Positions 26,658 through 62,069 of a stretch of 64,000 nt of DNA are shown one piece after another (position 1 is the stretch's first letter; every line of letters starts with the position of its first letter). Source of the DNA: a bacterium (lineage in GTDB: Bacteria > Patescibacteriota > Minisyncoccia > UBA6257 > GWB1-50-10); NCBI GenBank assembly GCA_021814165.1, contig JAKAIX010000003.1:14551-78550 (forward strand). Direction: 5' to 3'. A program made the position numbers and the translations under genes. The notes beneath the pieces are model-generated. The model worked only from the letters and a program-made list of their open reading frames with translations, was not told the DNA's origin and ran no database searches.

Positions 26658-26730
26658 TGCCCCCAGCAGGATTCGAACCTGCGACCTTCTCCTTAAGAGG
26701 GAGCAGCTCTACCAACTGAGCTATAGGGGC
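26658..26730 (-). tRNA. tRNA-Lys (CTT)
   Basis: Reverse complement gcccctatagctcagttggtagagc...ctCTTaa...ggtcgcaggttcgaatcctgctgggggc-a. It is near-identical to the tRNA-Lys(TTT) at 61997 except for the anticodon and the T-loop. Confidence 0.85.
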
Positions 26731-26858
26731 CCTCCTCCGCTTTGATTGTATTATCAAAGCTTCGGACGGGCAAGAATGATGGATCATTATATTCTCGTCC
26801 TTCCGAAGCTCGAATATATTTTCGAGCGAAGGCGGGAGATGTTATCTTATAAATTAAT
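26731..26858. repeat. ~130-bp tRNA-Lys upstream segment duplicated (inverted) at 61866-61996
   Basis: Shared sequence with inner palindromes: cctcctccgctttgattgtattatcaaagcttcggacgggcaagaatgatggatcattatattctcgtccttccgaagctcgaatatatttt. Confidence 0.75.
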
Positions 26859-26927
26859 AGGCCTTGCCGCTTTAGTCAATCAAATCCGCCTCTTTCCGAT
26901 CTTTTTGCTTCCGCGTTTTCTTCTTGG

Positions 26928-27767
26928 TCAAGGCGCGGGCGGAGGCAATTTGTAGTTCCCCGTTGCGAGAATCTTTCTTTCTCCCGCATCCAGAACCACA
27001 TATTGGCCTATTTCGGAAAAACCTGTTGCCGCACCGCTGACCCCTTTTTCGATAAATTCGATAACTGTTTGTTCGTTGGGAAACCCTCTAAGCGATTGTG
27101 GGAAAAAGTCAGGATATTTGGACTTTAATCTGCCAATGGTGGCCACAACTATTTTCCCTCCACGCGAAGACCCCGTGCCGCTTCCTTTTAAAATCAGCGC
27201 CGCGTCTTTAATGTCTGTAATCCAGTTTTTTATGGGAAGATGTTTCTCGCGTGATTCAGGTTCTCCGGTTGGTTGGCCACAGCCAGATTCCGGAGGCGGC
27301 GCCGTTCCGCCCGAACAAGTTCGTACAATGAAGTCTTCGCTACTTGTTGCATAATTTCGTTTCGTTTGGTTATCAAACCATTCATTCACTCTGATATATT
27401 TAATGTCGCTATTTGGTAAAACAAAAGAACTGGCCGCATAGGTGAGGCGTACGTTACCTGTGTTGATTTCATCTGGATCGAGTGAGGTTTCGATATCAAA
27501 GGGCTCCGCACCCGAAGCAATCGCCGCGGCATCTTTAGTATGAAGGCTGGCAATAGCGAGTAATGAACTACGTAAATCTACTTTCTCTACGGCAGTGGTT
27601 GTCGAAGTTGATGATGGCATCGTCGATGGAGGAGCGGAAGTCAAGAAAGAATCCGGGATTGGCATGGACCGCGGGGATTTTTTTACCAAAGCTAAGTATC
27701 CTACCGCCGCCAGAAAAGCAACGACGAGCAGAGAAAGAATGATGCTTGCAAATCCTTTTTCATTCAT
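26928..27767 (-). CDS. membrane-anchored hypothetical protein (Ser/Thr/Pro-rich linker, extracytoplasmic domain)
   Basis: N-terminal TM helix (ASIILSLLVVAFLAAVGYLAL), an STTT-rich linker, and 279 aa. Confidence 0.6.
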   Translation of the reverse strand: MNEKGFASIILSLLVVAFLAAVGYLALVKKSPRSMPIPDSFLTSAPPSTMPSSTSTTTAVEKVDLRSSLLAIASLHTKDAAAIASGAEPFDIETSLDPDEINTGNVRLTYAASSFVLPNSDIKYIRVNEWFDNQTKRNYATSSEDFIVRTCSGGTAPPPESGCGQPTGEPESREKHLPIKNWITDIKDAALILKGSGTGSSRGGKIVVATIGRLKSKYPDFFPQSLRGFPNEQTVIEFIEKGVSGAATGFSEIGQYVVLDAGERKILATGNYKLPPPAP

Positions 27768-27794
27768 ATGATTGATTTTCTAGAAATTTCTTAC

Positions 27795-27871
27795 TGGTGC
27801 CCTCGGCAGGACTTGAACCTGCAACCCTTTGGTTCGAAGCCAAATACTCTATCCAATTGAGCTACGAGGGC
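27795..27871 (-). tRNA. tRNA-Arg (TCG), CCA encoded
   Basis: Reverse complement gccctcg-ta-gctcaattggatagagt, anticodon stem tttgg/ccaaa with loop cTTCGaa, T-arm gcagg-ttcaagt-cctgc, acceptor cgagggc-a-cca. Confidence 0.85.
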
Positions 27872-27932
27872 TTTACTATTCGCATTCTACCCCGGTTTCT
27901 CGAAAAGAGGAAGGCGGGATATAATATGACTA

Positions 27933-29411
27933 ATGCGATCGGTGGTTCCGAAAGAGGTAAAGGAAACGGCGGCAATGCTCTCCCAAGCGGGGTATCGGGC
28001 GTATCTCGTAGGCGGGTGCGTGCGCGACGTGCTCTTGAAGCGCGATCCCAAGGATTGGGATATCGCGACCGACGCGCGTCCCGAGGAGATACAAAAAACG
28101 TTTCCGGAGAACGTGTATGAGAATGATTTTGGGACCGTGGGAATAAAAACGAAGTCCGAAGACCCGCGTCTCAGGATCGTCGAAGTGACCACCTTCAGGA
28201 TCGAGAGCGATTACTCCGATAAGCGCCACCCCGATGCCGTACGGTTTGCAAAAACCATCGAAGAAGATCTCTCCCGCAGGGATTTCACCATAAACGCAAT
28301 GGCGATAAATCCGGAAGCAAGGGACAAAAAATCGGGAACCGAAGAAATAGTGGATCCTTACGGCGGACAGAAAGATTTGAAAAACAAGGTTATCCGCACG
28401 GTGGGGGATCCGCGGAAACGCTTCGAAGAAGACGCACTCCGTCTTATGCGCGCGGTACGATTCGCGGTAGAGCTCGGTTTTGAAGTAGAACCGGCAACTC
28501 TGCGGGCAATGAAGGAACACGCGGGGCTTCTTGAGATGATCTCGAAGGAGCGGATTCGCGACGAATTGATAAAAATCGTCATGACACCCCGCGCGGCCGA
28601 AGGCATAATTCTCCTTGAGGATACGGGACTTCTTCCTCACGTTATTCCCGAGCTCAAGGAGGGAGTCGGATGCGGTCAGAACAAGCATCATATCTATACC
28701 GTGTTCGATCACAACGTGCGCGCCTTAAACTACACGGCAGAGAAACATTACTCCCTCGAAGTTCGCCTCGCGGCGCTTCTTCATGACGTCGGAAAGCCGA
28801 GGACGAAACGCGGCGAGGGACCCGATTCGACGTTTTACAATCACGAGGGAGTGGGGGCGAGAATGACGGCGAAGATTATGGATCGCCTTCGTGTCCCGAA
28901 AGAGACTGCCGAACGGGTAATTCACCTTGTGCGTTACCACCTTTTCTACTACAACGTCGGCGAAGTAACTGAGGCGGGCGTCAGGCGTTTTATTCAGCGC
29001 GTAGGAGAGGAATACATCGACGATCTCTTCAAGGTCCGCGAAGCGGATCGCATCGGTTCAGGCGTGCCGAAAGCCGTTCCTTACAAGCTTCGCCACCTTC
29101 GCTTTATGATGGAAAAGGTGAAGCGCGACCCGATTCATCCGAAGATGTTAAAAATGAAGGGAGACACGGTAATGGAACTTCTGCATATCCCGCCGGGGCC
29201 CAAAGTGGGGCAGCTTCTTTCGGTGCTCCTTGAGGAAGTGCTTGACGATCCGTCCTTGAATACGGAACAATACCTCCACGCCCGCGTGAAAGAACTCGCC
29301 GTGCATCCGGAGAAAGAACTCAAAGCGCTTGCGGAGAGGGCGAGGGAGAAAAAAGAAGAGTTCGAAAGCGGCATTGAGGAAGACATAAAGAAAAAATATT
29401 TTGTGAAATAG
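27933..29411 (+). CDS. cca: CCA-adding enzyme / tRNA nucleotidyltransferase with HD domain
   Basis: Pol-beta NTase motif (GGCVRD...DWDIATDA), a tRNA-NT head, and a C-terminal HD domain (LLHDVGKP). Confidence 0.85.
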   Translation: MRSVVPKEVKETAAMLSQAGYRAYLVGGCVRDVLLKRDPKDWDIATDARPEEIQKTFPENVYENDFGTVGIKTKSEDPRLRIVEVTTFRIESDYSDKRHPDAVRFAKTIEEDLSRRDFTINAMAINPEARDKKSGTEEIVDPYGGQKDLKNKVIRTVGDPRKRFEEDALRLMRAVRFAVELGFEVEPATLRAMKEHAGLLEMISKERIRDELIKIVMTPRAAEGIILLEDTGLLPHVIPELKEGVGCGQNKHHIYTVFDHNVRALNYTAEKHYSLEVRLAALLHDVGKPRTKRGEGPDSTFYNHEGVGARMTAKIMDRLRVPKETAERVIHLVRYHLFYYNVGEVTEAGVRRFIQRVGEEYIDDLFKVREADRIGSGVPKAVPYKLRHLRFMMEKVKRDPIHPKMLKMKGDTVMELLHIPPGPKVGQLLSVLLEEVLDDPSLNTEQYLHARVKELAVHPEKELKALAERAREKKEEFESGIEEDIKKKYFVK

Positions 29412-29415
29412 AGAT

Positions 29416-29823
29416 ATGAATCTGCCTTCATTCAAAGACGAACGCATCTGGAGAGTACTTACCAACTTTTGGACCTATCTCTTCATCATTTTTATCATAA
29501 TTAATTTTTTTGACAGGGATGCGCTTGATTTTCTTATCGCTCCCTTCAGCGTGGTGTACATCGGCATTCTCGGGCTTTACGTGGGTACGAAGGAATTCGA
29601 TCGGTGGTACGACATGCACGAGAGCCGCCATCCGGGGGAACTTTTCGTCTTCATGTGGACGGTGGTGGTGTTCGGACTTCTTATCCTCTCGGCGGTGCTT
29701 CAAAACGGCTACAGGGTGTCTTCGGAGGGGATCGCTGTGTATATCATGGTGCTCTCGGTTTTCGCGCTCACGCAGAAATCAAAACGGCTCCACGAGCGGA
29801 AAAAAGCGAGAAAGAGAAAGTAG
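29416..29823 (+). CDS. small multi-pass membrane protein, hypothetical
   Basis: 135 aa with 3-4 predicted TM helices and a basic C-terminal tail. Confidence 0.55.
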   Translation: MNLPSFKDERIWRVLTNFWTYLFIIFIIINFFDRDALDFLIAPFSVVYIGILGLYVGTKEFDRWYDMHESRHPGELFVFMWTVVVFGLLILSAVLQNGYRVSSEGIAVYIMVLSVFALTQKSKRLHERKKARKRK

Positions 29824-29832
29824 AAAATAAAA

Positions 29833-29862
29833 AACATCCGCCCTTTCGGCGGATGTTTTTTG
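29833..29862 (+). terminator. rho-independent terminator
   Basis: aacatccgcc-ctttc-ggcggatgtt followed by TTTTT. Confidence 0.8.
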
Positions 29863-30012
29863 TGGACCCACGGGGAATCTCACGCGCTCGCTCTCACTCG
29901 CTTTTCAAAACCCACGGTTTTGAATCCGCTTCACTCATTCCTCCACGGGGAAACTCCCGTTTCCCCGACCCCTTTCCCACTCGGCAATGTTCACCCCATT
30001 AGACATTCGTTG

Positions 30013-30083
30013 TGGACCTAGGGAGAATCGAACTCCCGTCCCGGCAATGCGAATGCCGTGTTCTACCACTAAACCATAGGCCC
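30013..30083 (-). tRNA. tRNA-Ala (CGC)
   Basis: Reverse complement gggccta...cggca-ttCGCat-tgccg...gggag-ttcgatt-ctccc-taggtcc-a. The G3:U70 Ala identity pair is present. Confidence 0.8.
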
Positions 30084-30222
30084 TAATTTACCACCTATGT
30101 CTAATGGAGCGAATGTTCCCGATTTGTACGAAAATTCTAAAATTTTCGTCTACAAATCGCAATCCCGCTTGCGGGGCCGCGTAATACCACTTTACTATGG
30201 GCCCGTTGGTCTAGGGTGCTTG

Positions 30223-30293
30223 TCGGGCTGCTGGGAGTCGAACCCAGTCTACACGCACCCGAAGCGTGCGTACTACCGCCATACTCCAGCCCG
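30223..30293 (-). tRNA. tRNA-Pro (CGG)
   Basis: Reverse complement cgggctg...cacgc-ttCGGgt-gcgtg...ctggg-ttcgact-cccag-cagcccg-a. C1:G72 and discriminator A73 are typical of tRNA-Pro. Confidence 0.7.
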
Positions 30294-30397
30294 ATCCAAG
30301 CATTTCAAGAATAAATGAATTTGAAGAAGAAGGGAAGGTCTTACTCCGGTTCTCGGAGAGTTGAGCAAAAAAACCTTTGAATATATGATTATCTCAT

Positions 30398-32080
30398 ATG
30401 ACCGGAGGGCTGCTTGAGCTTGCGATCGTGATATTGGTTGCCGCCGTACTCGGTTCGGCGGCAAAGCTGTTCCGTCAGCCCGTCATTCTTGCCTATCTCG
30501 CGACGGGGATTGTCATCGGCTACTTCGGACTATTTAACTTCCAGGACAAGGAAGTGTTTTCGATTTTTTCCGACCTTGGCATTATGTTCCTTCTCTTCCT
30601 CGTCGGACTCGAAATCAATTACACATCACTCCGTCTTGTGGGGAAGGCGTCAGTGATTCTGGGATTGGGACAAATCGTGTTTACGGCCGCGCTCGGCTAT
30701 CTTATTACGGCCGCGCTCGGGTTTCCTCCGCTTCAGGCGATCTACATTGCGGTCGCGCTCACGTTCTCAAGTACCATCATTATCGTAAAACTCCTTTCCG
30801 ACAAGAGGGAACTCCATAGCTTGCACGGAAAAATGAGTGTCGGCCTGCTCCTCGTACAGGATCTGGTCGCGGTGCTTATTCTTATCTTTCTCGCGAGTGT
30901 CGATACCGGCGGGGGCGGCATATGGTGGAATGTTATTCTCACCGTTCTGAAGGGGATAGCGCTGTTTGCCTTCATTCTGTTTCTCGGACGGAAAGTGTTC
31001 CCGCCGCTTTTTGACAGGATCGCCCGGTCGCAGGAGCTCCTTTTCCTTGCCAGCGTGGCGTGGCTTTTTCTTCTCGCCGCGGCGATTGCGAAAATAGGAT
31101 TTTCGATCGAGATCGCGGGGCTCCTTGCGGGGCTCGCGCTCGCGAATTCCTCCGAACGATTTGAAATTTCCCACAAGCTCCGCCCGCTTCGGGATTTTTT
31201 CATCCTTATTTTTTTCGTCATTCTCGGTACGTCGCTCACGTTATCGAATTTCAACGGTCTCGCGTCTCCCATCATACTCCTGTCGCTCTTCGTGCTTATC
31301 GGAAACCCTCTTATTATTCTCGTACTCATGGGGATCATGGGATACCGGAAGCGGACGAGTTTTCTCACGGGGATGAATATCGCGCAGATTTCCGAATTCA
31401 GTTTGGTGCTCGCGGCGGTGGGGCTTAAGATCGGCCACATCACCGAAGGAGTTGTCGCGCTTATCACGGCGGTGGGAATCATCACGATTGCATTCTCCTC
31501 GTATTTCATCATGCACGGGGAGACGATTTACCGGTTCTTCTCAAGACCGCTCTCGCTTTTCGAGCGGAAGAGAACGAAAGAGACGGAGCTCTCGGATGGG
31601 GAAGAGGCGAAGCCCATCGTACTTATCGGGTGCGGCCGGACGGGGGAGAGTTTGGCATTGGGGCTTCCGAGGAGCGAAATCTTGATTGTCGACTTTGATC
31701 CCGATGTGGTGAAGAAGCTCAAAATGAGGGGGTTTTCGGTGCTCTACGGGGACAGTGCGGACGACGAACTGTTCCACAGGGCGCACATGAAAGAAGCGAA
31801 GTTGGTAATCTCCACGAGCCCCGATCTCGACGATAATCTGGCGCTTCTCGCGCAGCTTTCGATGCCGAATGACACCAGGCCTAAAGTTATCGTGCGCGCC
31901 GACACGGAAGAAAACGCAAAGGCGCTCTACGAGCATGGAACCGATTACGTGCTTCTTCCTCACTTCACCTCGGGGCAGTATCTGGGGAAGACGATTGCGC
32001 TTGATCCGGCGATGGAGGTACTCCAAACTCTCCGGGAAAACGACCTAAAGCTTCTTGAGGCCATAGACGGGAAGAAATGA
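30398..32080 (+). CDS. monovalent cation:proton antiporter (CPA2, KefB/KefC-like) with C-terminal RCK/TrkA-N domain
   Basis: ~12 TM Na/H-exchanger core, then a Rossmann domain with IVLIGCGRTGESLALGL. Length 560 aa. Confidence 0.85.
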   Translation: MTGGLLELAIVILVAAVLGSAAKLFRQPVILAYLATGIVIGYFGLFNFQDKEVFSIFSDLGIMFLLFLVGLEINYTSLRLVGKASVILGLGQIVFTAALGYLITAALGFPPLQAIYIAVALTFSSTIIIVKLLSDKRELHSLHGKMSVGLLLVQDLVAVLILIFLASVDTGGGGIWWNVILTVLKGIALFAFILFLGRKVFPPLFDRIARSQELLFLASVAWLFLLAAAIAKIGFSIEIAGLLAGLALANSSERFEISHKLRPLRDFFILIFFVILGTSLTLSNFNGLASPIILLSLFVLIGNPLIILVLMGIMGYRKRTSFLTGMNIAQISEFSLVLAAVGLKIGHITEGVVALITAVGIITIAFSSYFIMHGETIYRFFSRPLSLFERKRTKETELSDGEEAKPIVLIGCGRTGESLALGLPRSEILIVDFDPDVVKKLKMRGFSVLYGDSADDELFHRAHMKEAKLVISTSPDLDDNLALLAQLSMPNDTRPKVIVRADTEENAKALYEHGTDYVLLPHFTSGQYLGKTIALDPAMEVLQTLRENDLKLLEAIDGKK

Positions 32081-32207
32081 GGGGACTTGTGGATAGATTT
32101 TTTCCTCTTGCGCCCCTTTTTGGTATAATAAGAGCAAGGTATATATCCGGTTTCTTTGCTGAGATCGGAAAAGGTCGGGTAATAATAAGAAAGGACGCAA
32201 TTCATTC

Positions 32208-32885
32208 ATGTTTATTCAAGATTGGGCGTCATTGGTCGTAGGTTCGCTTCAGAATCTCTGGGTCGGCTTTTTGAGTACGCTTGCGAGTATCGTGGGCGCG
32301 CTCATCGTGCTTATCATCGGTCTTATCGTTGCTGCGGGCATCGCTTCGCTCGTCGAAAAGATCGTGAATCTCGTGAAGCTCGACAAGCTTCTCGTAAATA
32401 TGGGACTTCAAGAGTATTTCGATCGTGCGGGACTCCGGTTAAACAGTGGAAAATTCTTCCACAGAATCGTCTACTGGTTCCTCGTGGTCGTCTTCCTGCT
32501 TGCGGCGACCGATATCCTTGGCTTCTACTCCCTCTCCAGTTTCTTGAGAGATGTATTGCTGTACGTTCCGAACGTGATCGTGGCGGTGTTGATCATGCTT
32601 GCGGCGCTTGTCATCGGGCACTTCCTGAAGAATGCCGTCACCGTTTCCGTGAAAGGCGCGCGTTTGCATGGTGCGGGATTTCTTGGCTCGCTCACGTGGT
32701 GGGCGGTCGTCGTGTTCGGATTTCTCGCGGCGCTTTCGCAGCTCGGTATCGCGGTGGTGATCGTGAACGCCTTAGTGACCGGTTTTATCGCCATGCTTGC
32801 GCTTGCCTTCGGGCTCGCGTTCGGTTTGGGCGGAAAAGACCAGGCGGCACAGGTGCTCTCGAAATTCCGCGAGCACACGCACTAG
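32208..32885 (+). CDS. membrane protein with repeated conserved TM-helix units (MscS-associated TM_helix-like), function unknown
   Basis: Several similar hydrophobic repeats (LIVLIIGLIVAAGIASL; WFLVVVFLLAATDILG; AVLIMLAALVIGHFL). Confidence 0.5.
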   Translation: MFIQDWASLVVGSLQNLWVGFLSTLASIVGALIVLIIGLIVAAGIASLVEKIVNLVKLDKLLVNMGLQEYFDRAGLRLNSGKFFHRIVYWFLVVVFLLAATDILGFYSLSSFLRDVLLYVPNVIVAVLIMLAALVIGHFLKNAVTVSVKGARLHGAGFLGSLTWWAVVVFGFLAALSQLGIAVVIVNALVTGFIAMLALAFGLAFGLGGKDQAAQVLSKFREHTH

Positions 32886-33144
32886 AAGTTGTTTCTAGAG
32901 TCAGAGAAAACTCCTCGCTTCTGCGGGGAGTTTTGTTGTAGGAGAATATTATCTTCCCCTCGTTCACAAACCTTCAAATATCAGGAACTTTGGTTCGCTC
33001 GCACGTTCCTCGCCATCCTGCTCGGCCTTACGGCGAGGGGCCTGACTCGGCGACGCGGCTCGCTCACAAGTTCCAAGGTATTTTCCGGTAATGTTCACTC
33101 GGAGAAGATAATATTCTATTTTCCTTCCTATTCTCTTTCTCATT

Positions 33145-33363
33145 AATGGATTTCTCTTTCTTCTGTCCGTGCCAAGTGCTTCGTTCATAATACTTTCACT
33201 GCATTCATCCTCGGAAAATTGAGGGGTTGTGCAACTCAACCTCATCCGCGCTTCGCGGATTCGGGATTCGAACAACGCACAACTCCCTCATTTCTCTCGT
33301 CTTTATGCAAGAAAGTATTTTATTCACTCCGCAAGGCACGGACAGAAGAAAGAGAAATCCATT
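33145..33363. mobile_element. MITE-like element: perfect 29-bp terminal inverted repeats flanking a 161-bp core
   Basis: Arm 33145-33173 (aatggatttctctttcttctgtccgtgcc) is the exact reverse complement of arm 33335-33363 (ggcacggacagaagaaagagaaatccatt). The core is non-coding. The element lies in the 5' leader of rplU. Confidence 0.55.
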
Positions 33364-33403
33364 CTTGCTTTTTTTTGCGGCCCCGTGTATTCTGAACTCT
33401 GTT

Positions 33404-33721
33404 ATGGCAGGAGAACAAACGGCGATAATCCAAACGGGAGGAAAACAATATGTGGTGCATGCGGGTGCGAAGCTCATTGTGGAAAAACTCGATGGCAAGG
33501 CGGGAGACGAGATTATATTCGATAAAGTGCTCTTGAAGGGAGACGACGCGAAGGTGGAAATAGGGACGCCGTACCTTTCGGGTGTGCGCGTCACGGGAAC
33601 GATTGCGGAGCAGGGAAGGGATGAAAAGAAAGTTATCTTCAGATATCACTCAAAGACGAGATACAGGAAGCTTAAAGGGCACCGTCAGCCGCACACGAAG
33701 GTAGTCATCACGAACATATAA
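33404..33721 (+). CDS. rplU: 50S ribosomal protein L21
   Basis: MAGEQTAIIQTGGKQYVVHAGAKLIVEKL matches the L21 N-terminus (xAIIxTGGKQYkV). Length 105 aa. Confidence 0.85.
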   Translation: MAGEQTAIIQTGGKQYVVHAGAKLIVEKLDGKAGDEIIFDKVLLKGDDAKVEIGTPYLSGVRVTGTIAEQGRDEKKVIFRYHSKTRYRKLKGHRQPHTKVVITNI

Positions 33722-33723
33722 AA

Positions 33724-33745
33724 AACGCCGGGGAGGCGTTTTTTG
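33724..33745 (+). terminator. rho-independent terminator after rplU
   Basis: aacgcc-gggga-ggcgtt followed by TTTT. Confidence 0.75.
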
Positions 33746-33748
33746 TCG

Positions 33749-34345: not shown

Positions 34346-34349
34346 GGCG

Positions 34350-35741: not shown

Positions 35742-35828
35742 ATGCCAACTATCAAATCAAATCCAAGATCCTGATGTCAAAAACGTTTTTGACATTTGTC
35801 ATTTGGACTTCGGCATTCTAAATAGAAC

Positions 35829-37271: not shown

Positions 37272-37275
37272 TCGT

Positions 37276-53202: not shown

Positions 53203-53473
53203 GATCACCCTCCTGGTTATAAGGGAGGACGAGAAAGTGAATGGAGGTACATAGCAGCCATTGTGATTATTCCTCCCAGTATGAGTGACAGAATTATCAC
53301 CCACTCTAGCTTCTTTTCTGATATTGCCATTTCAACCTCAGAATTGTTAAAGATACAGATAAAGTACCACGCTTGCGGCATTCGTCAATGAAAACAATCA
53401 GGGTTCTAAAAATGCAGATCTTTACAAGAAATAGGCAAATAGGCAGAATAGGTAGTAACTAGCTCTTTAGGAG

Positions 53474-54049: not shown

Positions 54050-54167
54050 AGAGAAAGAGGTTGCTTATATCGGCAACCTCTTATTATTTAAGACGATTTC
54101 ATCAGGTTTTCCGTTTTTTCTCGCTTTGCCGTTGTGGTATCATGGAGCAGTAATAGCGCGTGATATT

Positions 54168-55274
54168 ATGGTTATTTCAATTCCCTCATTCGGGTTGAAC
54201 ACGACGGGCGGCGACAGAGTGATTGTATCGCTTGCAAACGGTCTTGCGGAGAGAGGGCATACGGTCTATGTGGTGAATCTCGGGGCGGATCCCATTCCGT
54301 ATCGCGTTTCTCCGAAAGTCCGCATCACGCGGGTCCCGTTTGATGAAGATAAAAAGGATTTTTTGAACTTCGTCGTGAAGGGAATGACGGAACTCGCGAA
54401 TCATCTTCCCGATTCGGATGTCTACCTCGCGAACTGGGTATTCACCGTCTTCTCATGTGTCGCGAAGCGCGGCAAGGGAAAGACGGTATTTCTTTCCCAG
54501 GCGGATGAGATGTATGCGTTTAAGGACCGATCACTCAGCGTTTTAAACGGACTTTCCTACGGGGCATACCTTCTTCGCGCCCCGGTAATCGTGCCGTCCG
54601 ATTCGTTGCGGAAAATAGTGAAAAAAAGATTCGGCAGCGAGGCCCTGATTATTCCTCCTTGTGTCGATACGAGCGTTTTCAAGCCGGGAGCGCCGCACCG
54701 CTCCGCCGTGTTGAAGCTGCTCTTCGTGGGCGACATAGAGAGTGAAAACAAGGGGCTTGCCATACTTCTTTCCGCATGCGAGAAGATAAAAAACATCCGC
54801 TTTGAACTGCACGTTGCCACTCAGCGGAACATTACGCCGAACGACATCGCGCCGCGGGCGAAGTTTCCCGTTGTCATTCATAAGCCGGAAAACGACGAAG
54901 CGCTCGCCCGAGTATACCGTTCAAGTGATATATTCTTTCATCTTTCGAGGAAAGAAGGGTTCGGTCTCACTCTCCTTGAAGCGATGGCATGCGGATGCGT
55001 GAGCATCGTCACGGATTCCGGAGGCGTAAATGATTTTGCGGTGTCTAAGGGGAACTGTATTTTTGTAAAAAGGGACGGCAATTCCGTGGCGAGGGCGATT
55101 CGTTCCGTTTATGCGGATTTGAGGCGTCTGAGAAAAACACTCGGGAAAAACGCGGTCCTCACGGCGGCGCGCTATACGGAAAAGGAGATGACCGACCGTT
55201 TCGAGGATTTTTTCTTCGAGATATCGTCGAAAAAGCATGGCAAAAAGGAAAATAGGAATATACGTCGCTCATGA
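54168..55274 (+). CDS. glycosyltransferase family 1 (GT4)
   Basis: The N-terminal GT-B start MVISIPSFGLNTTGGDRVIVSLANGLAERGHTVYVV and the C-terminal motif EGFGLTLLEAMACGCVSIVTDSGG are present. Confidence 0.8.
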   Translation: MVISIPSFGLNTTGGDRVIVSLANGLAERGHTVYVVNLGADPIPYRVSPKVRITRVPFDEDKKDFLNFVVKGMTELANHLPDSDVYLANWVFTVFSCVAKRGKGKTVFLSQADEMYAFKDRSLSVLNGLSYGAYLLRAPVIVPSDSLRKIVKKRFGSEALIIPPCVDTSVFKPGAPHRSAVLKLLFVGDIESENKGLAILLSACEKIKNIRFELHVATQRNITPNDIAPRAKFPVVIHKPENDEALARVYRSSDIFFHLSRKEGFGLTLLEAMACGCVSIVTDSGGVNDFAVSKGNCIFVKRDGNSVARAIRSVYADLRRLRKTLGKNAVLTAARYTEKEMTDRFEDFFFEISSKKHGKKENRNIRRS

Positions 55275-55917
55275 CGACGACGCAATTATAGGAGCGGGAG
55301 GAACGATCGTAAAAACGCGGGCGGAAGGAGGGGAAGTATACGTGGTTATCGTCACCGACGGGGCAAACTCGCATTCGAGCGTTTTTGGCTTTGAGGAACA
55401 CCCGAGTAAGGAAGAAGTGAAGGCAAAACGGAAAGAAGAAATAAAAAAGGCGATGCGCGTGCTTGATGTTTCTCCCGAATTCGTCTTTTTTCTCGACCGA
55501 CCGGACGGAAGAAACGATATCTGGGGAGGGGATGAGAAACTTTTTGGAGACATTCTCGCGATAACCGAGCGCGAGCGCCCGGACGCCGTCTATTCGAACT
55601 ATACGTTCGATCCGCATACTGATCACGTGGCGGTAGGGAAGATAGTGGAGGGCATACTCGGGAGAATGAGCCGGACGCCGGAAGCTTTCCAATTCGCGAT
55701 TCAGGGGATTATCGAACGCCCCGATCGGGTTGTTCCGATTGCGGATGTGGTGGAGAGAAAAAGACAAGCGCTCTTCGAGATGAAAAGCCAGGTGCTTTCG
55801 GATCCGTACGAAAACGAAGGGTGGCGGAAACAGCCGCGCCCCATCCTGTCGGAAGATGAGGTGCAAAAGTTTTTGAGCGACAGAGAAACGTTCCGGGTTT
55901 TAAAAACCATCGGATGA
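55237..55917 (+). CDS. PIG-L/LmbE-family N-acetylglucosaminyl deacetylase
   Basis: IGIYVAHDDDAIIGAGGTIVK (HxDD motif) and the downstream HTDH metal-binding motif are present. Confidence 0.8.
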   Translation: MAKRKIGIYVAHDDDAIIGAGGTIVKTRAEGGEVYVVIVTDGANSHSSVFGFEEHPSKEEVKAKRKEEIKKAMRVLDVSPEFVFFLDRPDGRNDIWGGDEKLFGDILAITERERPDAVYSNYTFDPHTDHVAVGKIVEGILGRMSRTPEAFQFAIQGIIERPDRVVPIADVVERKRQALFEMKSQVLSDPYENEGWRKQPRPILSEDEVQKFLSDRETFRVLKTIG

Positions 55918-56052
55918 TTTTGATTGGAACGTCGCTATCCGACCAGGCTCGAATCCATCCGTCGTAATCCTATTACTCTTGGTGATGGGATGCGTGAAAC
56001 TTCCTGGTAAAAAATAAGCACCCCTCTTTCGAATGAAGGAAGGGCGCTAGTT

Positions 56053-56427
56053 TTAGATAAAATTTAAGAAGTAGTGCAGAACAGCTCCTGCGACGAGTGC
56101 TGCAGCAGCTCTCAATATCATCTCCTTATAGAGAGTGATTAGTTTCCTGCCCCTTGTAGCTCCTTCCTCTTCCGCCTCGATTTCAAGGTGGTTGTGATTC
56201 CTTTTCACCCTGTAATCGTGTTTCACGAAAGCGAAAAGGAGGTATATTCCTGCGCCTTGAGAAAGCGTGAGTGCCGGGACGAAGTGGAATGTTCCCGTCA
56301 CGAACCACAGCCATAGCACTTTTAGCACGAAGCCGTGGATTAGCGAACGGAGGAGGAATCCTCCCGCCCCGGTAAGGTGAACGTCGAAGAAATTAAGAAA
56401 CTTCTTCTTTCCTTTTAGCGTTTTCAA
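56053..56427 (-). CDS. small membrane protein (3 TM), hypothetical; TTG start behind RBS GGAGA
   Basis: Sits downstream of conserved promoter P1. RBS ataGGAGAatagaaTTG. Hydrophobic helices GGFLLRSLIHGFVLKVLWLWFV and AAAALVAGAVLHYFL. Confidence 0.5.
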   Translation of the reverse strand: MKTLKGKKKFLNFFDVHLTGAGGFLLRSLIHGFVLKVLWLWFVTGTFHFVPALTLSQGAGIYLLFAFVKHDYRVKRNHNHLEIEAEEEGATRGRKLITLYKEMILRAAAALVAGAVLHYFLNFI

Positions 56428-56476
56428 TTCTATTCTCCTATGAAATTGGTAAAAATCTAAATGTTTAAGTGAAAAT

Positions 56477-56505
56477 AAAATAGCACATTTCTGTGCCATA
56501 GTCAA
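56477..56505 (-). promoter_or_regulatory. conserved sigma70-like promoter P1 (TTGACT-17-TATTTT) with embedded CACAGAAATGTG palindrome
   Basis: Reverse complement TTGACTatggcacagaaatgtgcTATTTT. The same 25-nt core recurs at 58637-58665 and 61030-61053. Confidence 0.6.
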
Positions 56506-56560
56506 CCTCAACTTTACCTCTCTGTTAATTTCTCCCTTAAGATCCGCCCATTCTTGCTTC

Positions 56561-57343
56561 TTAAAGCTTTTCAAATATGTAACCTCTGGCGCGAATTGCA
56601 GGTACGATCTTCCGCAATACGTCGTAGCTTGCCGGAGCGTTCGGTCCTCCTATGTGCATTAAAATAACACCGTTGTTCTTTAATCGCGCAAGAATGTGGT
56701 TCGCTATTCTGTTTCCGTCCGGATTAAAAGGGTCAGACGCAAATATATTTCCTTCGTTGATCTCGAGTCCTAAGCTTTGTACGAGCGCGTCGTCTCCCTT
56801 TCCGCTGCAAAGACCGGGGTATCGGAAGTAGCGGGGTTTTTGTCCGGTAATATGCTCCAGAATCGTCTGTGTTTCTTCGATCTGCGCTATCTTTTCCTGG
56901 GGAGTAACGAGGGGAGTAAGCCAATAGCAGTGAGGAATGAAACCGGACTCGTCATAGCTGTGATTTTGGAAAGAAAACATTGTTGTGCTGGCAAGAGAAC
57001 GCATGAGATCGGGATATGTCTCGGCAAAAAGCCCAGATACAAAGAAGGTGGCGGGAATCCGTTCTTTCTCCAGATATGCGAAGATGCGCGGATCATACCA
57101 TTCTTGTACCAGCCCTTTTTGGTACTTACGTAGCATGGCCTCGTTCATGTCCATATCCATGGTGAGGAAGATGGTTTTGTGGGATTCTGCGATCGTGCCG
57201 CTTGCAACCGCCATAACGGTAGATACCGGCATATATGAGGAGGGATCCGCACGTCTCTGGTATGCCGAATGGAACGCGGGAATGTAGGCACATAACAAAA
57301 ATATGAATACGGCACCGGGTAGAAGAAAAATTAAATGTTTCAT
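56561..57343 (-). CDS. polysaccharide deacetylase (NodB/CE4 family), secreted
   Basis: Signal peptide present. The motifs TFFVSG (Asp/His motif 1 region), HSYDE/H-x-H-like and RYPGL are characteristic of CE4. Confidence 0.75.
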   Translation of the reverse strand: MKHLIFLLPGAVFIFLLCAYIPAFHSAYQRRADPSSYMPVSTVMAVASGTIAESHKTIFLTMDMDMNEAMLRKYQKGLVQEWYDPRIFAYLEKERIPATFFVSGLFAETYPDLMRSLASTTMFSFQNHSYDESGFIPHCYWLTPLVTPQEKIAQIEETQTILEHITGQKPRYFRYPGLCSGKGDDALVQSLGLEINEGNIFASDPFNPDGNRIANHILARLKNNGVILMHIGGPNAPASYDVLRKIVPAIRARGYIFEKL

Positions 57344-57662
57344 GTACTGCCGCGATTTGATTTAAATGTCATTATAATGGCACAGCTTATACAAAGACAC
57401 AAAGAGGGAGGAGAAATTCGAATCCTGCATGAATGCATCAAGACGACATCCGAAAAGCAAGAGCTCCTCGGTCGCACGATAACAAGAATCGACCACCCCT
57501 CTATGTGGACAAGTTCAGAGCCGTGGAGTGGGGGAAAATTGAAAAGAGACCCACATTTCTACTGGTTAATTATTCATTTCGGAGGGTCGCTTAGGATCCT
57601 TAAAAAATAAAGAGCAGCCTTCAATAAAGCTGCCCTCATAATTACTTGATTATTAGCTAAGA

Positions 57663-57992
57663 CTAAGAGAGAAGTTCTCTTGCCTTAGTTTCAACAACTT
57701 TTTTCAGCTTATCCTCGTCTACAAGGGTTCTGACGATAGGATTCGAAGGTTGAATGTTTAAAACAGCCTTCTTTTCTTCCACTCGTATGCTACCCTCTAT
57801 CTTGGCGCGTTTGAACCCTTGTTTGACTTTGAAAGAGAAAATCATCAAGTTGCCGATCCGCCAGAGTTTTTCCGGATCCTTTATTTCCACCTTCTTATCA
57901 GAAAAATCTTTCTTCATTAGTTCGGAAAGAAAGTTATCGATCCTTTTGACTGCCTCGGTTGTACCGAGATTGTGTGATATTGTTATTTCCAA
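57663..57992 (-). CDS. polyhydroxyalkanoic-acid-system family protein-like (TIGR02610-type small protein), function unknown
   Basis: MEITISHNLGTTEAVKRIDNFLSELMKK...KIEGSIRVEEKKAVLNIQ parallels the small PHA-system family (M.I.I.H.LG...EG.i.vee..i.v.l). A terminator follows at 57611-57645. Confidence 0.5.
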   Translation of the reverse strand: MEITISHNLGTTEAVKRIDNFLSELMKKDFSDKKVEIKDPEKLWRIGNLMIFSFKVKQGFKRAKIEGSIRVEEKKAVLNIQPSNPIVRTLVDEDKLKKVVETKARELLS

Positions 57993-58013
57993 GTTGTCCT
58001 CCTTAGGAATTGT

Positions 58014-58532
58014 TTATTTACTGTGTGTAACTTTGTGTATGACAATTTCGATGCCAAAATTCGGATCGGTATATTTTCTGAGGAGAAGATCTTTTATTTC
58101 AAGCACGTATGCAGCCTCGTTTGGATCTGAGAGTTCCTGGATAGCCTCTTCTACTGTTTTACCGGTAGTGCTTATGTTTCTGTTAAACCAGGTGTTCGAG
58201 CGCCAAAGGCTAAATCTCACCTTTTCAAGATCGTATTGTTTTATCATACCGATTTCCTGACCATCGGCTGCTATTAATATAAAACGAAGGTTTTCTATCC
58301 TGTCCGGTCTTCTCAGACGCCGATTCCACGCACTTGTCCATGGATAGCGGGACATTAGATCAGAGTCGGCCTTCTGAACCTGCGGTACTTTATGCAATTT
58401 TTTGATCTCTGGGTATCTCTTCAGAAAAGGATATTCCTTCAAAAGCGCATCGATTCGTATATTCAGTATGCTTTTTTTGACAACATCGATGATCATTTCT
58501 GCGAGTAATTCTGTTTCTGTCTTATCTCTCAT
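58014..58532 (-). CDS. hypothetical protein (172 aa) behind conserved promoter P2
   Basis: RBS AAGGAG 7 nt before the ATG (MRDKTETELL). Coding-like composition; no recognised motif. Confidence 0.6.
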   Translation of the reverse strand: MRDKTETELLAEMIIDVVKKSILNIRIDALLKEYPFLKRYPEIKKLHKVPQVQKADSDLMSRYPWTSAWNRRLRRPDRIENLRFILIAADGQEIGMIKQYDLEKVRFSLWRSNTWFNRNISTTGKTVEEAIQELSDPNEAAYVLEIKDLLLRKYTDPNFGIEIVIHKVTHSK

Positions 58533-58636
58533 AGTTTTCTCCTTGTGACATCCAGCCACAATTTACGAAGTGGGTATTCCACCCGCTTCAGAGTTGTTGA
58601 ATTTGTTAAATAACACCCGATAGATTGGGTGTAAAG

Positions 58637-58665
58637 AAAATAACACATTTCTGTTCTATTGTCAA
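58637..58665 (-). promoter_or_regulatory. conserved promoter P2 (TTGACA-17-TATTTT) with ACAGAAATGTGT core
   Basis: Reverse complement TTGACAatagaacagaaatgtgtTATTTT. Followed by a ~100-nt 5' UTR containing the hairpin acacccaatctatcgggtgt. Confidence 0.6.
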
Positions 58666-58818
58666 CTTTAATTCCGAGCTGTACGTGAACTTCGAACCGT
58701 AATAATGGACGGCTGGCACTCTTACGAAATGTGCGCGACCGTCAAAATGCTCCGCCGGGAGTTATCGTTCGATTGGATTGATTAAAGATTTTCTTCAATC
58801 TGATAATATGTACGTTCG

Positions 58819-59331
58819 TCATATTTTTCGGCTGTCGTATGCCCAGTGCAGAACCGCCTGCCTTTGTGCAGGCCGGCAAGTTAAATCTTTCGGCCGGCAA
58901 TTCTTTTTGATTTGCGATATGTGTCGGCTGATCGCTTTCCACCGCTTGATCTGCCGTTCGTCTTCGCCCGGAAGCCGCCTGCCCATGTAGTAGCGACAAT
59001 ACCACTGGAACCAGCCGCGAGGGTCGTGCTTTTCGTTGATCCAACCTTTCTCAACCCAGACTTTAAGCGGCTGGCTAGCATGCTTATGGAAAAAGTTGAG
59101 TGTGTCGTCGTGATGTTCTAGTGAAAGCTTGGCGCGAGTAAACCAGTCTTTTGGAAATTCCTTTTTGCAGTCGGTCATATATTTGCCGCCAAAGACGCCG
59201 AGCGCGAGCATCTGTTTTGGCGTAAGCTCCGGCTTGAAATCCGGATGAAAATTCCGTCCTACCGGTTCGGTAAGCTGGTACTTGTAACCTTTCTGAAATT
59301 TATCGTTTACTTTTACGGTCTTTTTTCTCAT
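58819..59331 (-). CDS. conserved hypothetical basic protein (GWFQWYCRYYMGRR motif)
   Basis: 170 aa, Lys/Arg/Trp-rich, with no TM helix. It is upstream of and probably co-transcribed with the P2 unit. Confidence 0.55.
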   Translation of the reverse strand: MRKKTVKVNDKFQKGYKYQLTEPVGRNFHPDFKPELTPKQMLALGVFGGKYMTDCKKEFPKDWFTRAKLSLEHHDDTLNFFHKHASQPLKVWVEKGWINEKHDPRGWFQWYCRYYMGRRLPGEDERQIKRWKAISRHISQIKKNCRPKDLTCRPAQRQAVLHWAYDSRKI

Positions 59332-59340
59332 AAATATTTG

Positions 59341-59799
59341 TTATCGGATTACAAGATATATGGCCAAGAGAAGCAATCCGCCCCACCAGCCGATATCGGA
59401 GACAATGAGGCTTGCCATGATTTTCCTTTGCCAGGAAGCCGGCAGGAGTTCTCCGGACAGGCCCTCTTTCTCACGCTTCAATAAAAACGGACTGACTTTG
59501 AAAGACAGAAAATAGCCGTTCAAGATGAGGGCGAGCGCGATCACCGCATGGATGAGCGGAATGCCGGCAAAGCTTTGCTCGCGGTAGAAAATCATACCGC
59601 CGATAATAGCGAGCATAATGCCGGCCCAGATCATCGGCTTAGTCACTTTGTGCGTGCGTGTAGTAGCTTCGGTCCAGTATGATGACTTTCGTCCGAGAAA
59701 ACCGTGGATATCTATGACCGTTACCGCTCCAAGGCCGATCACGAAACCGGCGAAGAATAGAAATAGTCCGATTGTATCGAGCCATTCGACCGAGCTCAT
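59341..59799 (-). CDS. integral membrane protein (4 TM), hypothetical
   Basis: Hydrophobic helices (IGLFLFFAGFVIGLGAVTVI; MIWAGIMLAIIGGMIFY; IHAVIALALILNGYFL; GWWGGLLLLAIYLVI). Confidence 0.55.
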   Translation of the reverse strand: MSSVEWLDTIGLFLFFAGFVIGLGAVTVIDIHGFLGRKSSYWTEATTRTHKVTKPMIWAGIMLAIIGGMIFYREQSFAGIPLIHAVIALALILNGYFLSFKVSPFLLKREKEGLSGELLPASWQRKIMASLIVSDIGWWGGLLLLAIYLVIR

Positions 59800-59808
59800 G
59801 ATAATAGA

Positions 59809-60285
59809 TTAATTGAGAACATAAATTGAATAATTTAAGTACATGGCAAAACTAACCCATGCTATGTAAGGCACCAAGAGCCATGCCGTCGGACGAGATA
59901 TTTTTGCAAAAGCGATGATCGTGGCAAGAATAGCAAGCCAGAGGAATATGATCTCAATAAATGCGCCGCCCGGAGAATGCAGACCGAAAAAGATAATTGA
60001 CCAAAGTGTGTTCAATACCAACTGGCCGAGAAATATGCCGAGGGCAATTTTTACATCCCTTCTCACAAGCCCCTTTTTCCAGACCAGAAACGCGGCGATG
60101 CCCATGAGCGTGTAGAGTGTCGTCCAAACCGGACCGAAGACCCACGCAGGAGGATTTAGAACCGGTTTGACGATCCCGGCATACCAAGTCGGGATGGCCG
60201 AGGCGGTAAAAATCGAACCGATTATTCCAGCCGCTTCTGATACCACGATCGCAATAACCAATTTGAAGAAATTATTGAGCTTCAT
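59809..60285 (-). CDS. tspO: TspO/MBR family tryptophan-rich sensory protein
   Basis: 5-TM protein with PAWVFGPVWTTLYTLMGIAAFLVW (W-x-PP-x-W-x-F-x3-W-x2-LY signature) and 158 aa. Confidence 0.75.
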   Translation of the reverse strand: MKLNNFFKLVIAIVVSEAAGIIGSIFTASAIPTWYAGIVKPVLNPPAWVFGPVWTTLYTLMGIAAFLVWKKGLVRRDVKIALGIFLGQLVLNTLWSIIFFGLHSPGGAFIEIIFLWLAILATIIAFAKISRPTAWLLVPYIAWVSFAMYLNYSIYVLN

Positions 60286-60467
60286 AATTCAATTTTACCA
60301 TTTACTGCTATTTTCGTCCTAGTCTACCGGGGCGAGTTTGGTGGTATTTGTCAATCTAGCTTAGTGGATAGAACGCGTGAGGACTTGTTTGGTGTAAAAT
60401 AATGAACCGCTAAGAAAAAATCTTAGCGGTAAGCAGTCGGTCTGCTTAGTCCTTTGAAGTTATACAC

Positions 60468-60962
60468 CTAGGAGAAGAGGGGGCCGGCGATACTAACACC
60501 GATAATGTGTGGTGAGAGGCTCTTTTCCGATCTCGGTTGATAAGAGACGATTTTCCAATCTTCTCTTATAGCAAGAGCCCCATGTTCTGTGCCGACTATA
60601 TTGTGTGCTGTTGCCCAGAAAAGTTGTTCGAGGATATCGGCCTTCTCTTCAAGCGGCTCAAGCTTGCTTTTGAACTTTTTGCATTCTTCCGATACTCTTT
60701 CTAATCCGTCGCCTTTTTCGTCTCTGAGCGCGTCACGCAGAAGACCGGGCAGATCCATTTTCTTGTGAAACAGTCCGTGTTCTGTTTTTAGAGTGTTTAT
60801 TTCTTGGACCATTTTCGAATGTAGAGAATAAATCTTCTTCATTTCATCGTCTGCCTCTCCGACGATCCTTTCTTCCTCGAGTTTTTCTCCCGCTTTTTCA
60901 GGGGCGATGATATCAGTAACACCATTGATCTCATTAGAGAGACCCTGCAAAAAACTAGTCAT
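60468..60962 (-). CDS. acidic coiled-coil hypothetical protein behind conserved motif P3
   Basis: RBS AAGGAGG 7 nt before the ATG. Glu/Lys-rich helical protein with no recognised domain. Confidence 0.5.
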   Translation of the reverse strand: MTSFLQGLSNEINGVTDIIAPEKAGEKLEEERIVGEADDEMKKIYSLHSKMVQEINTLKTEHGLFHKKMDLPGLLRDALRDEKGDGLERVSEECKKFKSKLEPLEEKADILEQLFWATAHNIVGTEHGALAIREDWKIVSYQPRSEKSLSPHIIGVSIAGPLFS

Positions 60963-61029
60963 TTGTGACCTCCTTCGGTTGATGGTTAGTTAGATGGATA
61001 AGGAATTATGAAATTGCAATAATAGAGTG

Positions 61030-61053
61030 ACACATTTCTATGCTATTTGTCAA
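61030..61053 (-). promoter_or_regulatory. third copy of the conserved CACATTTCT-N-TGTCAAC motif (P3; -10 element degenerate)
   Basis: Plus strand gacacatttctatgctatttgtcaacg. The TTGACA -35 and the AGAAATGTGT core are retained, but the -10 is poor (CACTCT) or displaced (TATTAT, 23-nt spacing). Confidence 0.45.
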
Positions 61054-61236
61054 CGTTTCGGCGGAGTTTCACCCGTATCTGAACTCTGCAGGTAGGACTC
61101 GCTTCTCGCGTTGCTCGAAACACTCAAAAAACATAGTCGTTTCACTCCTTGTTTTTGGGTGCCTCCGGTTCAAGCTCTACCTGTACGAAACAGAAACCAA
61201 AATACCGCACCATAAAGATGCGGCATTTTGATTTTT

Positions 61237-61308
61237 GCTCCGGCGGTAGGATTCGAACCTACAACCATCTCCTTAACAGGGAGCCGCACTACCATTGTGC
61301 TACGCCGG
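61237..61308 (-). tRNA. tRNA-Asn (GTT)
   Basis: Reverse complement tccggcg-ta-gcacaatggtagtgc...ctGTTaa...gtagg-ttcgaat-cctac-cgccgga-g. A terminator hairpin gccgcatctttatggtgcggtatttt lies downstream. Confidence 0.85.
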
Positions 61309-61451
61309 AATACAGCTATAAGAATAATAACAACAAGGCCCGATGTAAAGTACTCGGGCCCGTTATTCTAGTTACTTAGGAGTTTTAATATTTATTTTTT
61401 GAATTGTTTGTTAAGGTTGCTAATTTATCGTAATTCAATTATAACGTTCTT

Positions 61452-61823
61452 ATGGAACGCAAGGAATTAATCAGAACTATTTATCTATATCTCTTCTCGC
61501 TCGTGGGACTGGTACTGGTAATAATCGGACTTGTCCAAGTCGTGGATCTCGGTCTCAAGTCCCTCGTGTTTACGAACGCGGATCAAGTCGTCATCTATCC
61601 TTCGTACCCCGTAAAACCGGTGCCCTCATCGATCGACGAAAAACAGGCCCAACCGACGCCGGAAGAGCTTGCCGACTACGAGAGGAAACAAGCGGAGTCG
61701 CAGCGCGCCCAGGAAGCGAGTAACAAAGCACGCACCGCGTCAAATGCGCTTGCGATGATTATTATCGGTACCCCGCTTTTCCTGTATCACTGGAAGACGA
61801 TCCAGAAAGACAAGAAGGCCTAG
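61452..61823 (+). CDS. small membrane protein (2 TM), hypothetical
   Basis: TM helices at the N-terminus (LYLFSLVGLVLVIIGLVQVV) and C-terminus (LAMIIIGTPLFLY), with a charged middle region. Confidence 0.5.
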   Translation: MERKELIRTIYLYLFSLVGLVLVIIGLVQVVDLGLKSLVFTNADQVVIYPSYPVKPVPSSIDEKQAQPTPEELADYERKQAESQRAQEASNKARTASNALAMIIIGTPLFLYHWKTIQKDKKA

Positions 61824-61865
61824 ACGTCCTATTTGAGGTATTTGAAATTTAGAATTTTAAGTTTA

Positions 61866-61996
61866 GAATTCTAACGAGCCCCTATAGCTTCCTCCTTCGC
61901 TCAAAAATATATTCGAGCTTCGGAAGGACGAGAATATAATGATCCATCATTCTTGCCCGTCCGAAGCTTTGATAATACAATCAAAGCGGAGGAAGG
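61866..61996. repeat. inverted duplicate of the tRNA-Lys upstream segment (partner of 26731-26858)
   Basis: Near-identical to the reverse complement of 26731-26858 (ttcctccttcgctcaaaaatatattcgagcttcggaaggacgagaatataatgatccatcattcttgcccgtccgaagctttgataatacaatcaaagcggaggaagg). It is preceded at 61868-61881 by a 12-nt echo of the tRNA 5' end (gcccctatagct). Confidence 0.75.
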
Positions 61997-62069
61997 GCCC
62001 CTATAGCTCAGTTGGTAGAGCTGCTCCCTTTTAAGGAGAAGGTCGCAGGTTCGAGTCCTGCTGGGGGCA
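61997..62069 (+). tRNA. tRNA-Lys (TTT)
   Basis: gcccctatagctcagttggtagagc...ctTTTaa...ggtcgcaggttcgagtcctgctgggggc-a. CCA is not encoded. Confidence 0.85.

Follow-up and report, generated by a model that had tools for sequence, protein, structure and literature searches.

Probable homogenisation of two inverted tRNA-Lys genes and gain of a palindrome-rich leader insert in a patescibacterial genome

The stretch analysed here (the window) is 64 kb of contig JAKAIX010000003.1 from a bacterium of the Patescibacteriota. ARAGORN and Rfam were used for the tRNA calls, which place nine tRNA genes inside the window, two of them tRNA-Lys genes. tRNA-Lys(CUU), with anticodon CTT in the DNA, occupies 26658-26730 on the minus strand (call start 26657/8), and tRNA-Lys(UUU), with anticodon TTT, occupies 61997-62069 on the plus strand (call end 62069/70). 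They are 35 kb apart and in opposite orientation. Immediately upstream, both carry a copy of the same palindrome-rich, non-coding block. The origin of this inverted duplication, and whether the interval between the two copies inverts, are the subject of this report.

A repeat search of the window gave two pairs of inverted arms, 26726-26838/61888-62000 (113 nt, 96% identity) and 26643-26733/61994-62084 (91 nt, 95%). Save for a third tRNA-Lys fragment, the 64 kb contain no other long inverted repeats. The window has exactly two occurrences of the palindrome GCTTTGATAATACAATCAAAGC, where 0.00 would be expected. Identity between the two units is graded. The upstream block is the same at 101 of 104 positions (97%) and the tRNA bodies at 71 of 73, the differences being anticodon base C34/T34 and one T-loop base (A/G). 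The trailer with its terminator agrees at 32 of 43 positions (74%). In the 60 nt beyond the homology on either side, a gapped alignment gives 52-54%, which is background. The block and the tRNA together are approximately 97% identical between the loci and amount to about 180 nt of inverted homology.

The initial annotation, made from the letters of the window, had described two near-identical tRNA-Lys units in inverted orientation, with tRNAs that differ only at the anticodon and in the T-loop. The repeat search and the base-by-base alignment bear this out, with a single base changed in the T-loop. It had also described near-identical 130-bp flanks with internal palindromes. A shared, palindrome-rich flank does exist, but its real length is only about 102-110 nt (26731-26831/38 and 61888/95-61996). 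The outer 20-25 nt or so of the ranges first proposed (26731-26858 and 61866-61996) are mutually unrelated.

The duplication does not stem from faulty assembly, as it also occurs in the independent NCBI assemblies GCA_027423925.1, GCA_027423885.1, and GCA_027423905.1. Three Logan unitigs from different runs (L010, L011, and L012) all end at window position 26793, which is 30 nt past a G/A variant at 26823, where words of k=31 become common to both copies. As the unitigs end where these words lose their uniqueness, they are independent evidence of the duplication in those samples.

Loci of relatives were found through the proteins that flank the tRNA-Lys genes. For the CTT locus these are mainly L015 (neighbour protein 86% identical at the amino acid level) and L021 (66%), and for the TTT locus L036 (84%), L029, L033, L034, and L037. 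A further locus, L025, lies on the 184-kb contig k141_281567 of a relative that has 66-83% amino acid identity to the window.

At the TTT locus, all features are on the plus strand. A sigma-70-like promoter (TTGAAA-16-TAGAAT, 61842-61869) lies outside the repeat and is kept in L036. It is followed by a 12-nt duplicate of tRNA bases 1-12 (61878-61889), by the 107-nt leader element (61890-61996; a closing stem and three abutting hairpins), and, after the tRNA, by a trailer and terminator hairpin (62070-62110) that marks the right end of the homology between the copies. At the CTT locus, all features are on the minus strand. The promoter-like block (26832-26879) consists of TTGACT-17-TAATTT...ATAAGATAACATCTCCCGC, is also outside the repeat, and is kept in L015 and L021. 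Read from 26879 to 26841, it is TTGACT-17-TAATTT followed by ATAAGATAAC. The leader element copy (26731-26831) measures 101 nt and is palindrome-rich. The trailer and intrinsic terminator hairpin lie at 26617-26657. The CTT promoter block and the differences between the terminator stems were read directly from the sequence and the alignment. The stems differ by two compensatory pair changes (TTCCCGGA/TCCGGGAA versus TCTCCGGA/TCCGGAGA), so both terminators are predicted to remain functional hairpins.

L036 provides an empty site for the TTT locus. It aligns with the window through the DUF5671 stop codon, the promoter, and tRNA bases 1-12. At this point the window has 119 nt more than L036, after which the alignment resumes. 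The extra 119 nt are the 107-nt element plus a second copy of the 12-mer GCCCCTATAGCT. The window has this 12-mer at the start of both tRNA-Lys genes, at 61878-61889, and nowhere else (0.00 expected). The copy at 61878-61889 is the left copy of the target duplication and stands where the tRNA starts in L036. At the level of sequence, the TTT locus is shown by this comparison to carry a clean 119-bp insertion with a 12-bp target duplication. The terminal inverted repeats of the inserted copy are 8 bp long (CTTCCTCC/GGAGGAAG) and its closing stem is CUUCCUCC/GGAGGAAG. The element is absent from the TTT locus of L029, L033, L034, L036, and L037.

The locus in L033 (930-1050; DUF5671 protein 88% identical) is arranged differently. 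A 10-nt fragment of the tRNA 5' end (GCCCCTATAA) stands after the DUF5671 stop codon, and a different spacer of about 115 nt, with a long hairpin and a promoter region, leads to an intact tRNA-Lys(TTT). The 5' fragment and the other spacer suggest that the 5' edge of this tRNA gene is a recurrent site of rearrangement.

The CTT locus of L015 and L021 is likewise empty of the element. In both, the promoter block runs to ...ATCTCYCGC and is followed by 6 nt and then directly by the tRNA; the window has approximately 98 nt extra. At the window's junction, the ancestral ...CTCCCGC is joined to ...CTTCGC of the element and the old AGACAC is gone, i.e., the element copy replaces the last 6 nt or so of a short leader of the L015 type. 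This copy has no target duplication, the first 5 nt or so of the element are missing, and its closing stem is partly built from the flank. Judged from the orthologous loci, the shared flank is a lineage-specific insertion that is absent from the closest relatives at both places.

The tRNA genes themselves have a different history from the element. The CTT gene is found at an Arg-279aa-Lys-NTP_transferase locus in L015, L016, L021, and L022, and the TTT gene at an Asn-DUF5671-Lys(-Map) locus in L025, L029, L034, L036, and L037. Because both isoacceptor genes are already at the same loci in relatives, the likeness of the window genes points to homogenisation and not to the birth of an isoacceptor. 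The earlier proposal that one Lys isoacceptor arose by copying of the whole unit is therefore not supported. The Lys-Asn neighbourhood of L001 was considered as a further syntenic TTT locus and rejected, as the intervening open reading frame (ORF) is unrelated.

The window CTT gene differs from the window TTT gene at two positions and from its orthologue in L015 at four, including a compensatory T-stem pair. The flank of about 102 nt is common to the window paralogues only and not to the orthologues. In relatives, the T-stem is CCAGG/CCTGG in CTT genes (L015, L002, L021, and L001) and GCAGG/CCTGC in TTT genes (L025, L029, L034, and L036). The window CTT gene has the TTT-type T-stem GCAGG/CCTGC and is identical to the TTT genes of L025 and L036 except for C34. 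Its terminator matches that of the L025 tRNA-Lys(TTT) at 35 of 37 positions. The TTT-type T-stem and the L025-like terminator indicate that the 3' part of the window CTT gene is TTT-derived. Neither Lys tRNA gene encodes the 3' CCA. A gene for a CCA-adding enzyme (PolyA_pol head and HD domains; 27933-29411, plus strand) lies 1.2 kb from tRNA-Lys(CTT), amid tRNA genes for Arg, Ala, and Pro.

At 26485-26524 (minus strand), 133 nt downstream of the CTT gene, lies a degenerate remnant of a tRNA-Lys 3' half that extends from the anticodon loop to the acceptor (TCTCAAGGAGCGAAGCGACGTTCGATTCCTGCTGGGG). In L015 the tRNA ends 6 nt before the start codon of the NTP_transferase, and about 290 nt in the window are thus lineage-specific. 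A 244-aa ORF beside tRNA-Lys(CTT) in L021 was considered as a homing endonuclease and rejected, since Pfam gives only a weak helix-turn-helix match.

Taken with these comparisons, the most probable account, in which we have reasonably good confidence, is that two pre-existing Lys isoacceptor genes were partly homogenised in this species and also gained a new, non-coding, palindrome-rich insert, and that the 35 kb between them have no detectable capacity to invert. Known processes account for the duplication, which is real and recent. The filled and empty sites show that the 107-nt element entered the tRNA-Lys(UUU) locus as a 119-bp insertion that duplicated tRNA bases 1-12. With these bases duplicated, an intact gene remains downstream of the insert. 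The junction sequences then suggest that the element and the adjoining tRNA were copied non-reciprocally, across 35 kb, into the inverted tRNA-Lys(CUU) locus. Homology in the tRNA body would have anchored the copying, and the far end would have been attached within the old leader (...CTCCCGC|CTTCGC...), which would have lost its final 6 nt. Such an event would be gene conversion or similar to synthesis-dependent strand annealing, with a non-homologous left junction that end joining closed within the old leader.

Primary insertion at the TTT locus followed by copying to the CTT locus appears to be the most economical direction, because the reverse would need extra substitutions at the TTT junction. 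The gradient of identity (97% for element and tRNA, 74% for the terminator, and random flanks) fits a recent conversion tract laid over an older homology. The anticodon difference may never have been converted or may have been held by selection. L015 and L029 already show no difference between CTT and TTT genes in the tRNA 5' half, so a conversion tract that ended before nt 34 would fit as well as a re-mutated anticodon. We also considered that a single cassette of element, tRNA, terminator, and cargo was inserted into the resident tRNA at both loci. This was rejected, as there is no similarity beyond the terminator.

The position of the element bears on what it does. The initial annotation had offered the shared flank as a tRNA promoter or a processing leader. 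A common promoter does not hold: the promoters of the CTT and TTT units show no relation to each other, and each lies outside the repeat and is conserved at the orthologous locus of relatives. The second suggestion fares better. Because the element lies between these conserved promoters and tRNA position +1, it is most likely a transcribed 5' leader that would be cut off by RNase P. On the tRNA strand, its RNA is predicted to form a closing stem and three directly abutting hairpins, that is, a four-way junction with zero-linker helices. The minimum free energies (MFE) of the two copies are −43.8 and −43.9 kcal/mol, with z = −6.3 and −5.9. None of the shuffled sequences folded as well (0/200). 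In the predicted fold of the CTT pre-tRNA, the element adjoins an intact cloverleaf and the terminator. The leader would fold alone beside the acceptor stem before its removal, and it may contribute an internal promoter as well. A fold of the element as DNA also predicts these palindromes. The four-way junction is a prediction and does not in itself speak for a function. A coding reading was rejected, as an ORF through the element is 31 aa long in one copy and 83 aa in the other and shifts frame between them.

In the MFE fold of the TTT precursor (61876-62112), the 3' acceptor strand has the upstream 12-nt duplicate (GCCCCUA...) as its partner instead of the genuine 5' strand. If transcription starts at the outer promoter, this modelled pairing is a possible source of mis-processing. 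In other Parcubacteria (L003 2670-2915, L004 1-185, and L007 3720-3960), tRNA-Met and tRNA-Lys genes each lie between inverted repeats of about 25 nt (GCTTGCCCCGCGTAGCCTTGGCG ... CGCCAAGGCTACGCGTGGCAAGC), which would form long precursor stems enclosing the tRNA. AGCGAAGTRGG recurs as the final motif of the leaders at these loci, and the element in the window has an echo of it, AGCGGAGGAAGG, at its own 3' end.

Several observations weigh against this account of insertion, copying, and a folded leader. It is unusual for conversion to have homology on just one side. The CTT terminator is nearer to the TTT terminator of L025 than to that of the window (35/37 versus 74%). Together with the 3'-half remnant behind the CTT gene, this L025-like terminator makes it necessary to assume one or more additional, older events (integration or replacement) at the CTT locus, and the order of events given here is tentative. 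The element matched no other sequence in any search that was run. As regards the leader, the sole substitution within a stem (G/A at 26823/61903) has no compensating partner, and a set of just two near-identical copies offers no covariation from which the fold could be seen to matter. A weak internal promoter-like site, TTGCCC-17-TACAAT, ends 15 nt before the tRNA in both copies, and part of the element might therefore act as DNA and not as an RNA leader.

The element could instead be a target-specific mobile element, similar to a MITE (miniature inverted-repeat transposable element), that was inserted independently 5' of both tRNA-Lys genes. The clean TTT insertion with its 12-bp target duplication and 8-bp terminal inverted repeats would suit such an origin, as would the fact that both copies abut tRNA position +1. 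We nevertheless judge it improbable, because the CTT copy has neither a target duplication nor the first 5 nt or so and replaces 6 nt of the old leader, and because a third copy was not found in about 72 kb of this genome or in 225 kb that include relatives. BLAST over all fetched loci and a covariance model built from the element (R1), run on 225 kb (the window and 19 loci), returned just the two known copies. For this genome, the copy searches covered the window and its L013 extension, i.e., about 72 kb of approximately 775 kb (about 9%), and gave no dispersed further copies; neither did the 225 kb that include the relatives. An exact-pattern scan of genome contigs with the tRNA-Lys 5' half gave four Parcubacteria and two Gordonia, none with the element. 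A metagenome scan anchored on the leader 3' end and the tRNA gave one match, which has an unrelated leader. Viral contig scans with the element core and with the 3'-half att sequence gave 0 matches, blastn of the element against phage genomes gave none, and its six-frame peptides matched nothing among 5.8 billion proteins. No transposase was identified in the part of the genome covered.

We find it similarly unlikely that the shared block is a selected regulatory module, be it a structured leader or a released small RNA through which the two Lys tRNAs would be coordinated, or a promoter/operator unit that acts as DNA. Its copies are as alike as the tRNAs (97%), with the terminator drifted to 74%; its predicted fold is very stable, with helices that have no linkers; and the internal TTGCCC-17-TACAAT site, 15 nt before the tRNA in both copies, is overlapped by perfect palindromes. 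The near-identity is, however, explained equally well by recency. The block is absent at both loci from all relatives examined, and is thus not needed for tRNA-Lys expression in the clade. The lone change in a stem lacks a compensating one, and Rfam 15, at the gathering threshold and at a permissive E-value, found only the tRNA in both copies. The best sub-threshold matches on the element are noise (TLS-PK3, 20 bits versus 80; MIR1523, 16-20 bits versus 96). In a still more speculative and rather doubtful proposal, the block would be a new non-autonomous element or acquired RNA module that specifically occupies the 5' end of tRNA-Lys genes, preserves the gene by duplicating tRNA bases 1-12, and spreads between isoacceptors. 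Released by RNase P, it would be a stable structured RNA with a function of its own, e.g., to coordinate how the two Lys tRNAs are expressed or processed.

The initial annotation had further proposed that the inverted repeats drive inversion of the intervening 35 kb by homologous recombination. About 180 nt of inverted sequence at 97% is enough substrate for RecA-type recombination, a non-reciprocal exchange between the loci evidently happened, and inversion is documented between the inverted tuf genes of enterobacteria (PMC6735719). The repeats could in principle recombine reciprocally, as tuf genes do. A reversible or polymorphic inversion is nonetheless highly unlikely here, on several counts. 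Both orientations were sought in the long contigs of the species (about 10 per junction) and in the relative's 184-kb contig, and one arrangement only was found. At the CTT junction, all of the approximately 10 long contigs have the 279-aa gene (inside) adjoining NTP_transferase/RecG (outside). At the TTT junction, all have DUF5671 (inside) adjoining the 199-aa island ORF and protease (outside). Every long contig thus carries the parental junctions, and the contig breaks in other assemblies fall elsewhere than at the repeats. These data are consensus assemblies, and a rare inverted subpopulation is below their reach.

On the relative's contig k141_281567, about 38 kb separate the orthologous ends, whose relative orientation and outside neighbours are those of the window. 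One end has the order CysS-DnaB-RecR-L21-MscS-Na/H-CCA-tRNA-Arg-279aa, tRNA-Lys, NTP_transferase-RecG-PheS-GatCA-LigA, and the other tRNA-Asn-DUF5671, tRNA-Lys, Map-CTP_transferase. GC skew has the same sign outside the segment (+0.045, left flank) and in it (+0.057), and the cumulative skew rises monotonically. In addition, the long repeat is species-specific and young. By gene order and skew, the present orientation is ancestral and uniform, and the proposed inversion is not borne out. A smaller inversion is seen in L025 (6433-6506), where, measured against the flanking genes DUF5671 and Map, the unit of promoter, tRNA-Lys(TTT), and terminator has the reverse of its orientation in the window and in five other relatives. 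The inversion is local, spans about 200 bp, and concerns the tRNA unit alone.

The inverted duplicates tufA and tufB of enterobacteria evolve in concert by gene conversion, with occasional inversion (PMC5485169, PMC6735719). The tRNA-Lys genes resemble them in being inverted paralogous genes of the translation machinery on one chromosome, near-identical by non-reciprocal recombination and in principle open to inversion. They differ in that the repeats are only about 180-220 bp long and are tRNA genes with different anticodons. A foreign insert was also carried across, the left junction is non-homologous, and no inversion is seen. A second parallel is tRNA anticodon shift or remolding, in which a tRNA is closer to a paralogue with another anticodon than to its orthologue (PMC3923123, PMC2997554, PMC4783518). 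Here, too, the paralogue is nearer, and flanking synteny separates orthologues from paralogues. The described cases are mostly eukaryotic or mitochondrial, whereas the present one lies within one amino acid family. Because the isoacceptor 5' halves of relatives are already identical, an anticodon mutation after copying is also no more than a possibility here. By analogy, the behaviour of the two genes matches the literature on concerted evolution of inverted duplicates and on anticodon shift and remolding. As an instance of homogenised tRNA genes in a small-genome bacterium of the Parcubacteria type, it is neat but unremarkable.

The insert itself can be compared with bacterial MITEs and small palindromic repeats such as Correia, BOX, RUP, and REP (PMC3184786, PMC2229807, PMC10969869). 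It shares with them a length of about 100 bp, the lack of coding capacity, terminal inverted repeats, a target duplication (at one site), hairpins in the transcript, and a possible promoter. Those families are multi-copy, unlike the element, which was found twice in the 9% or so of the genome seen, both times at tRNA-Lys. Its 12-bp duplication is also unusually long, and it has no identified parent insertion sequence.

With empty sites at hand, the case is clean and datable: in a minimal-genome patescibacterium, isoacceptor genes appear to swap sequence and to drag a foreign insert along. It also illustrates that near-identical inverted tRNA units need not mean an invertible segment, and in annotation the locus should be labelled neither an inversion switch nor a promoter duplication. 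It adds a data point on the concerted evolution of tRNA genes and on tRNA genes as insertion hotspots at both the 5' and the 3' end. Wider interest would follow if the insert proved to be functional or tRNA-targeting.

tRNA-gene-targeted genomic islands use integrase att sites in the tRNA 3' half. At the 3' side of the TTT gene, 49 nt of the tRNA-Lys(TTT) 3' half (62024-62072) are repeated without mismatch and in direct orientation at 62911-62959 on the plus strand, as an att-like scar. In relatives, DUF5671, tRNA-Lys, and M24 (methionine aminopeptidase) are adjacent; here, about 4.4 kb of extra genes are present. This island runs from 62073 to beyond the end of the window (L013 10620-15080), has a GC content of 0.41 versus 0.50-0.51, and carries six ORFs: 199 aa, a 391-aa protease, and then 61, 215, 106, and 155 aa. 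The 391-aa protein is an SDH/ClpP-like protease that matches phrog_11747 and head-maturation proteases. None of the six ORFs has an integrase domain, and with no integrase left the island would be a decayed integrated one. By sequence features, the direct repeat, the empty site, and the deviant GC content match a tRNA-targeted integrative island, and the remnant behind the CTT gene is a decayed counterpart. Such islands differ from what is seen here in still having an integrase, and they would account for the downstream scars but not for the shared upstream block. In L037 (1150-1300), a second tRNA-Lys(TTT) 3' half stands right after the intact gene, with its T-loop broken by a hairpin-rich insert of about 77 nt.

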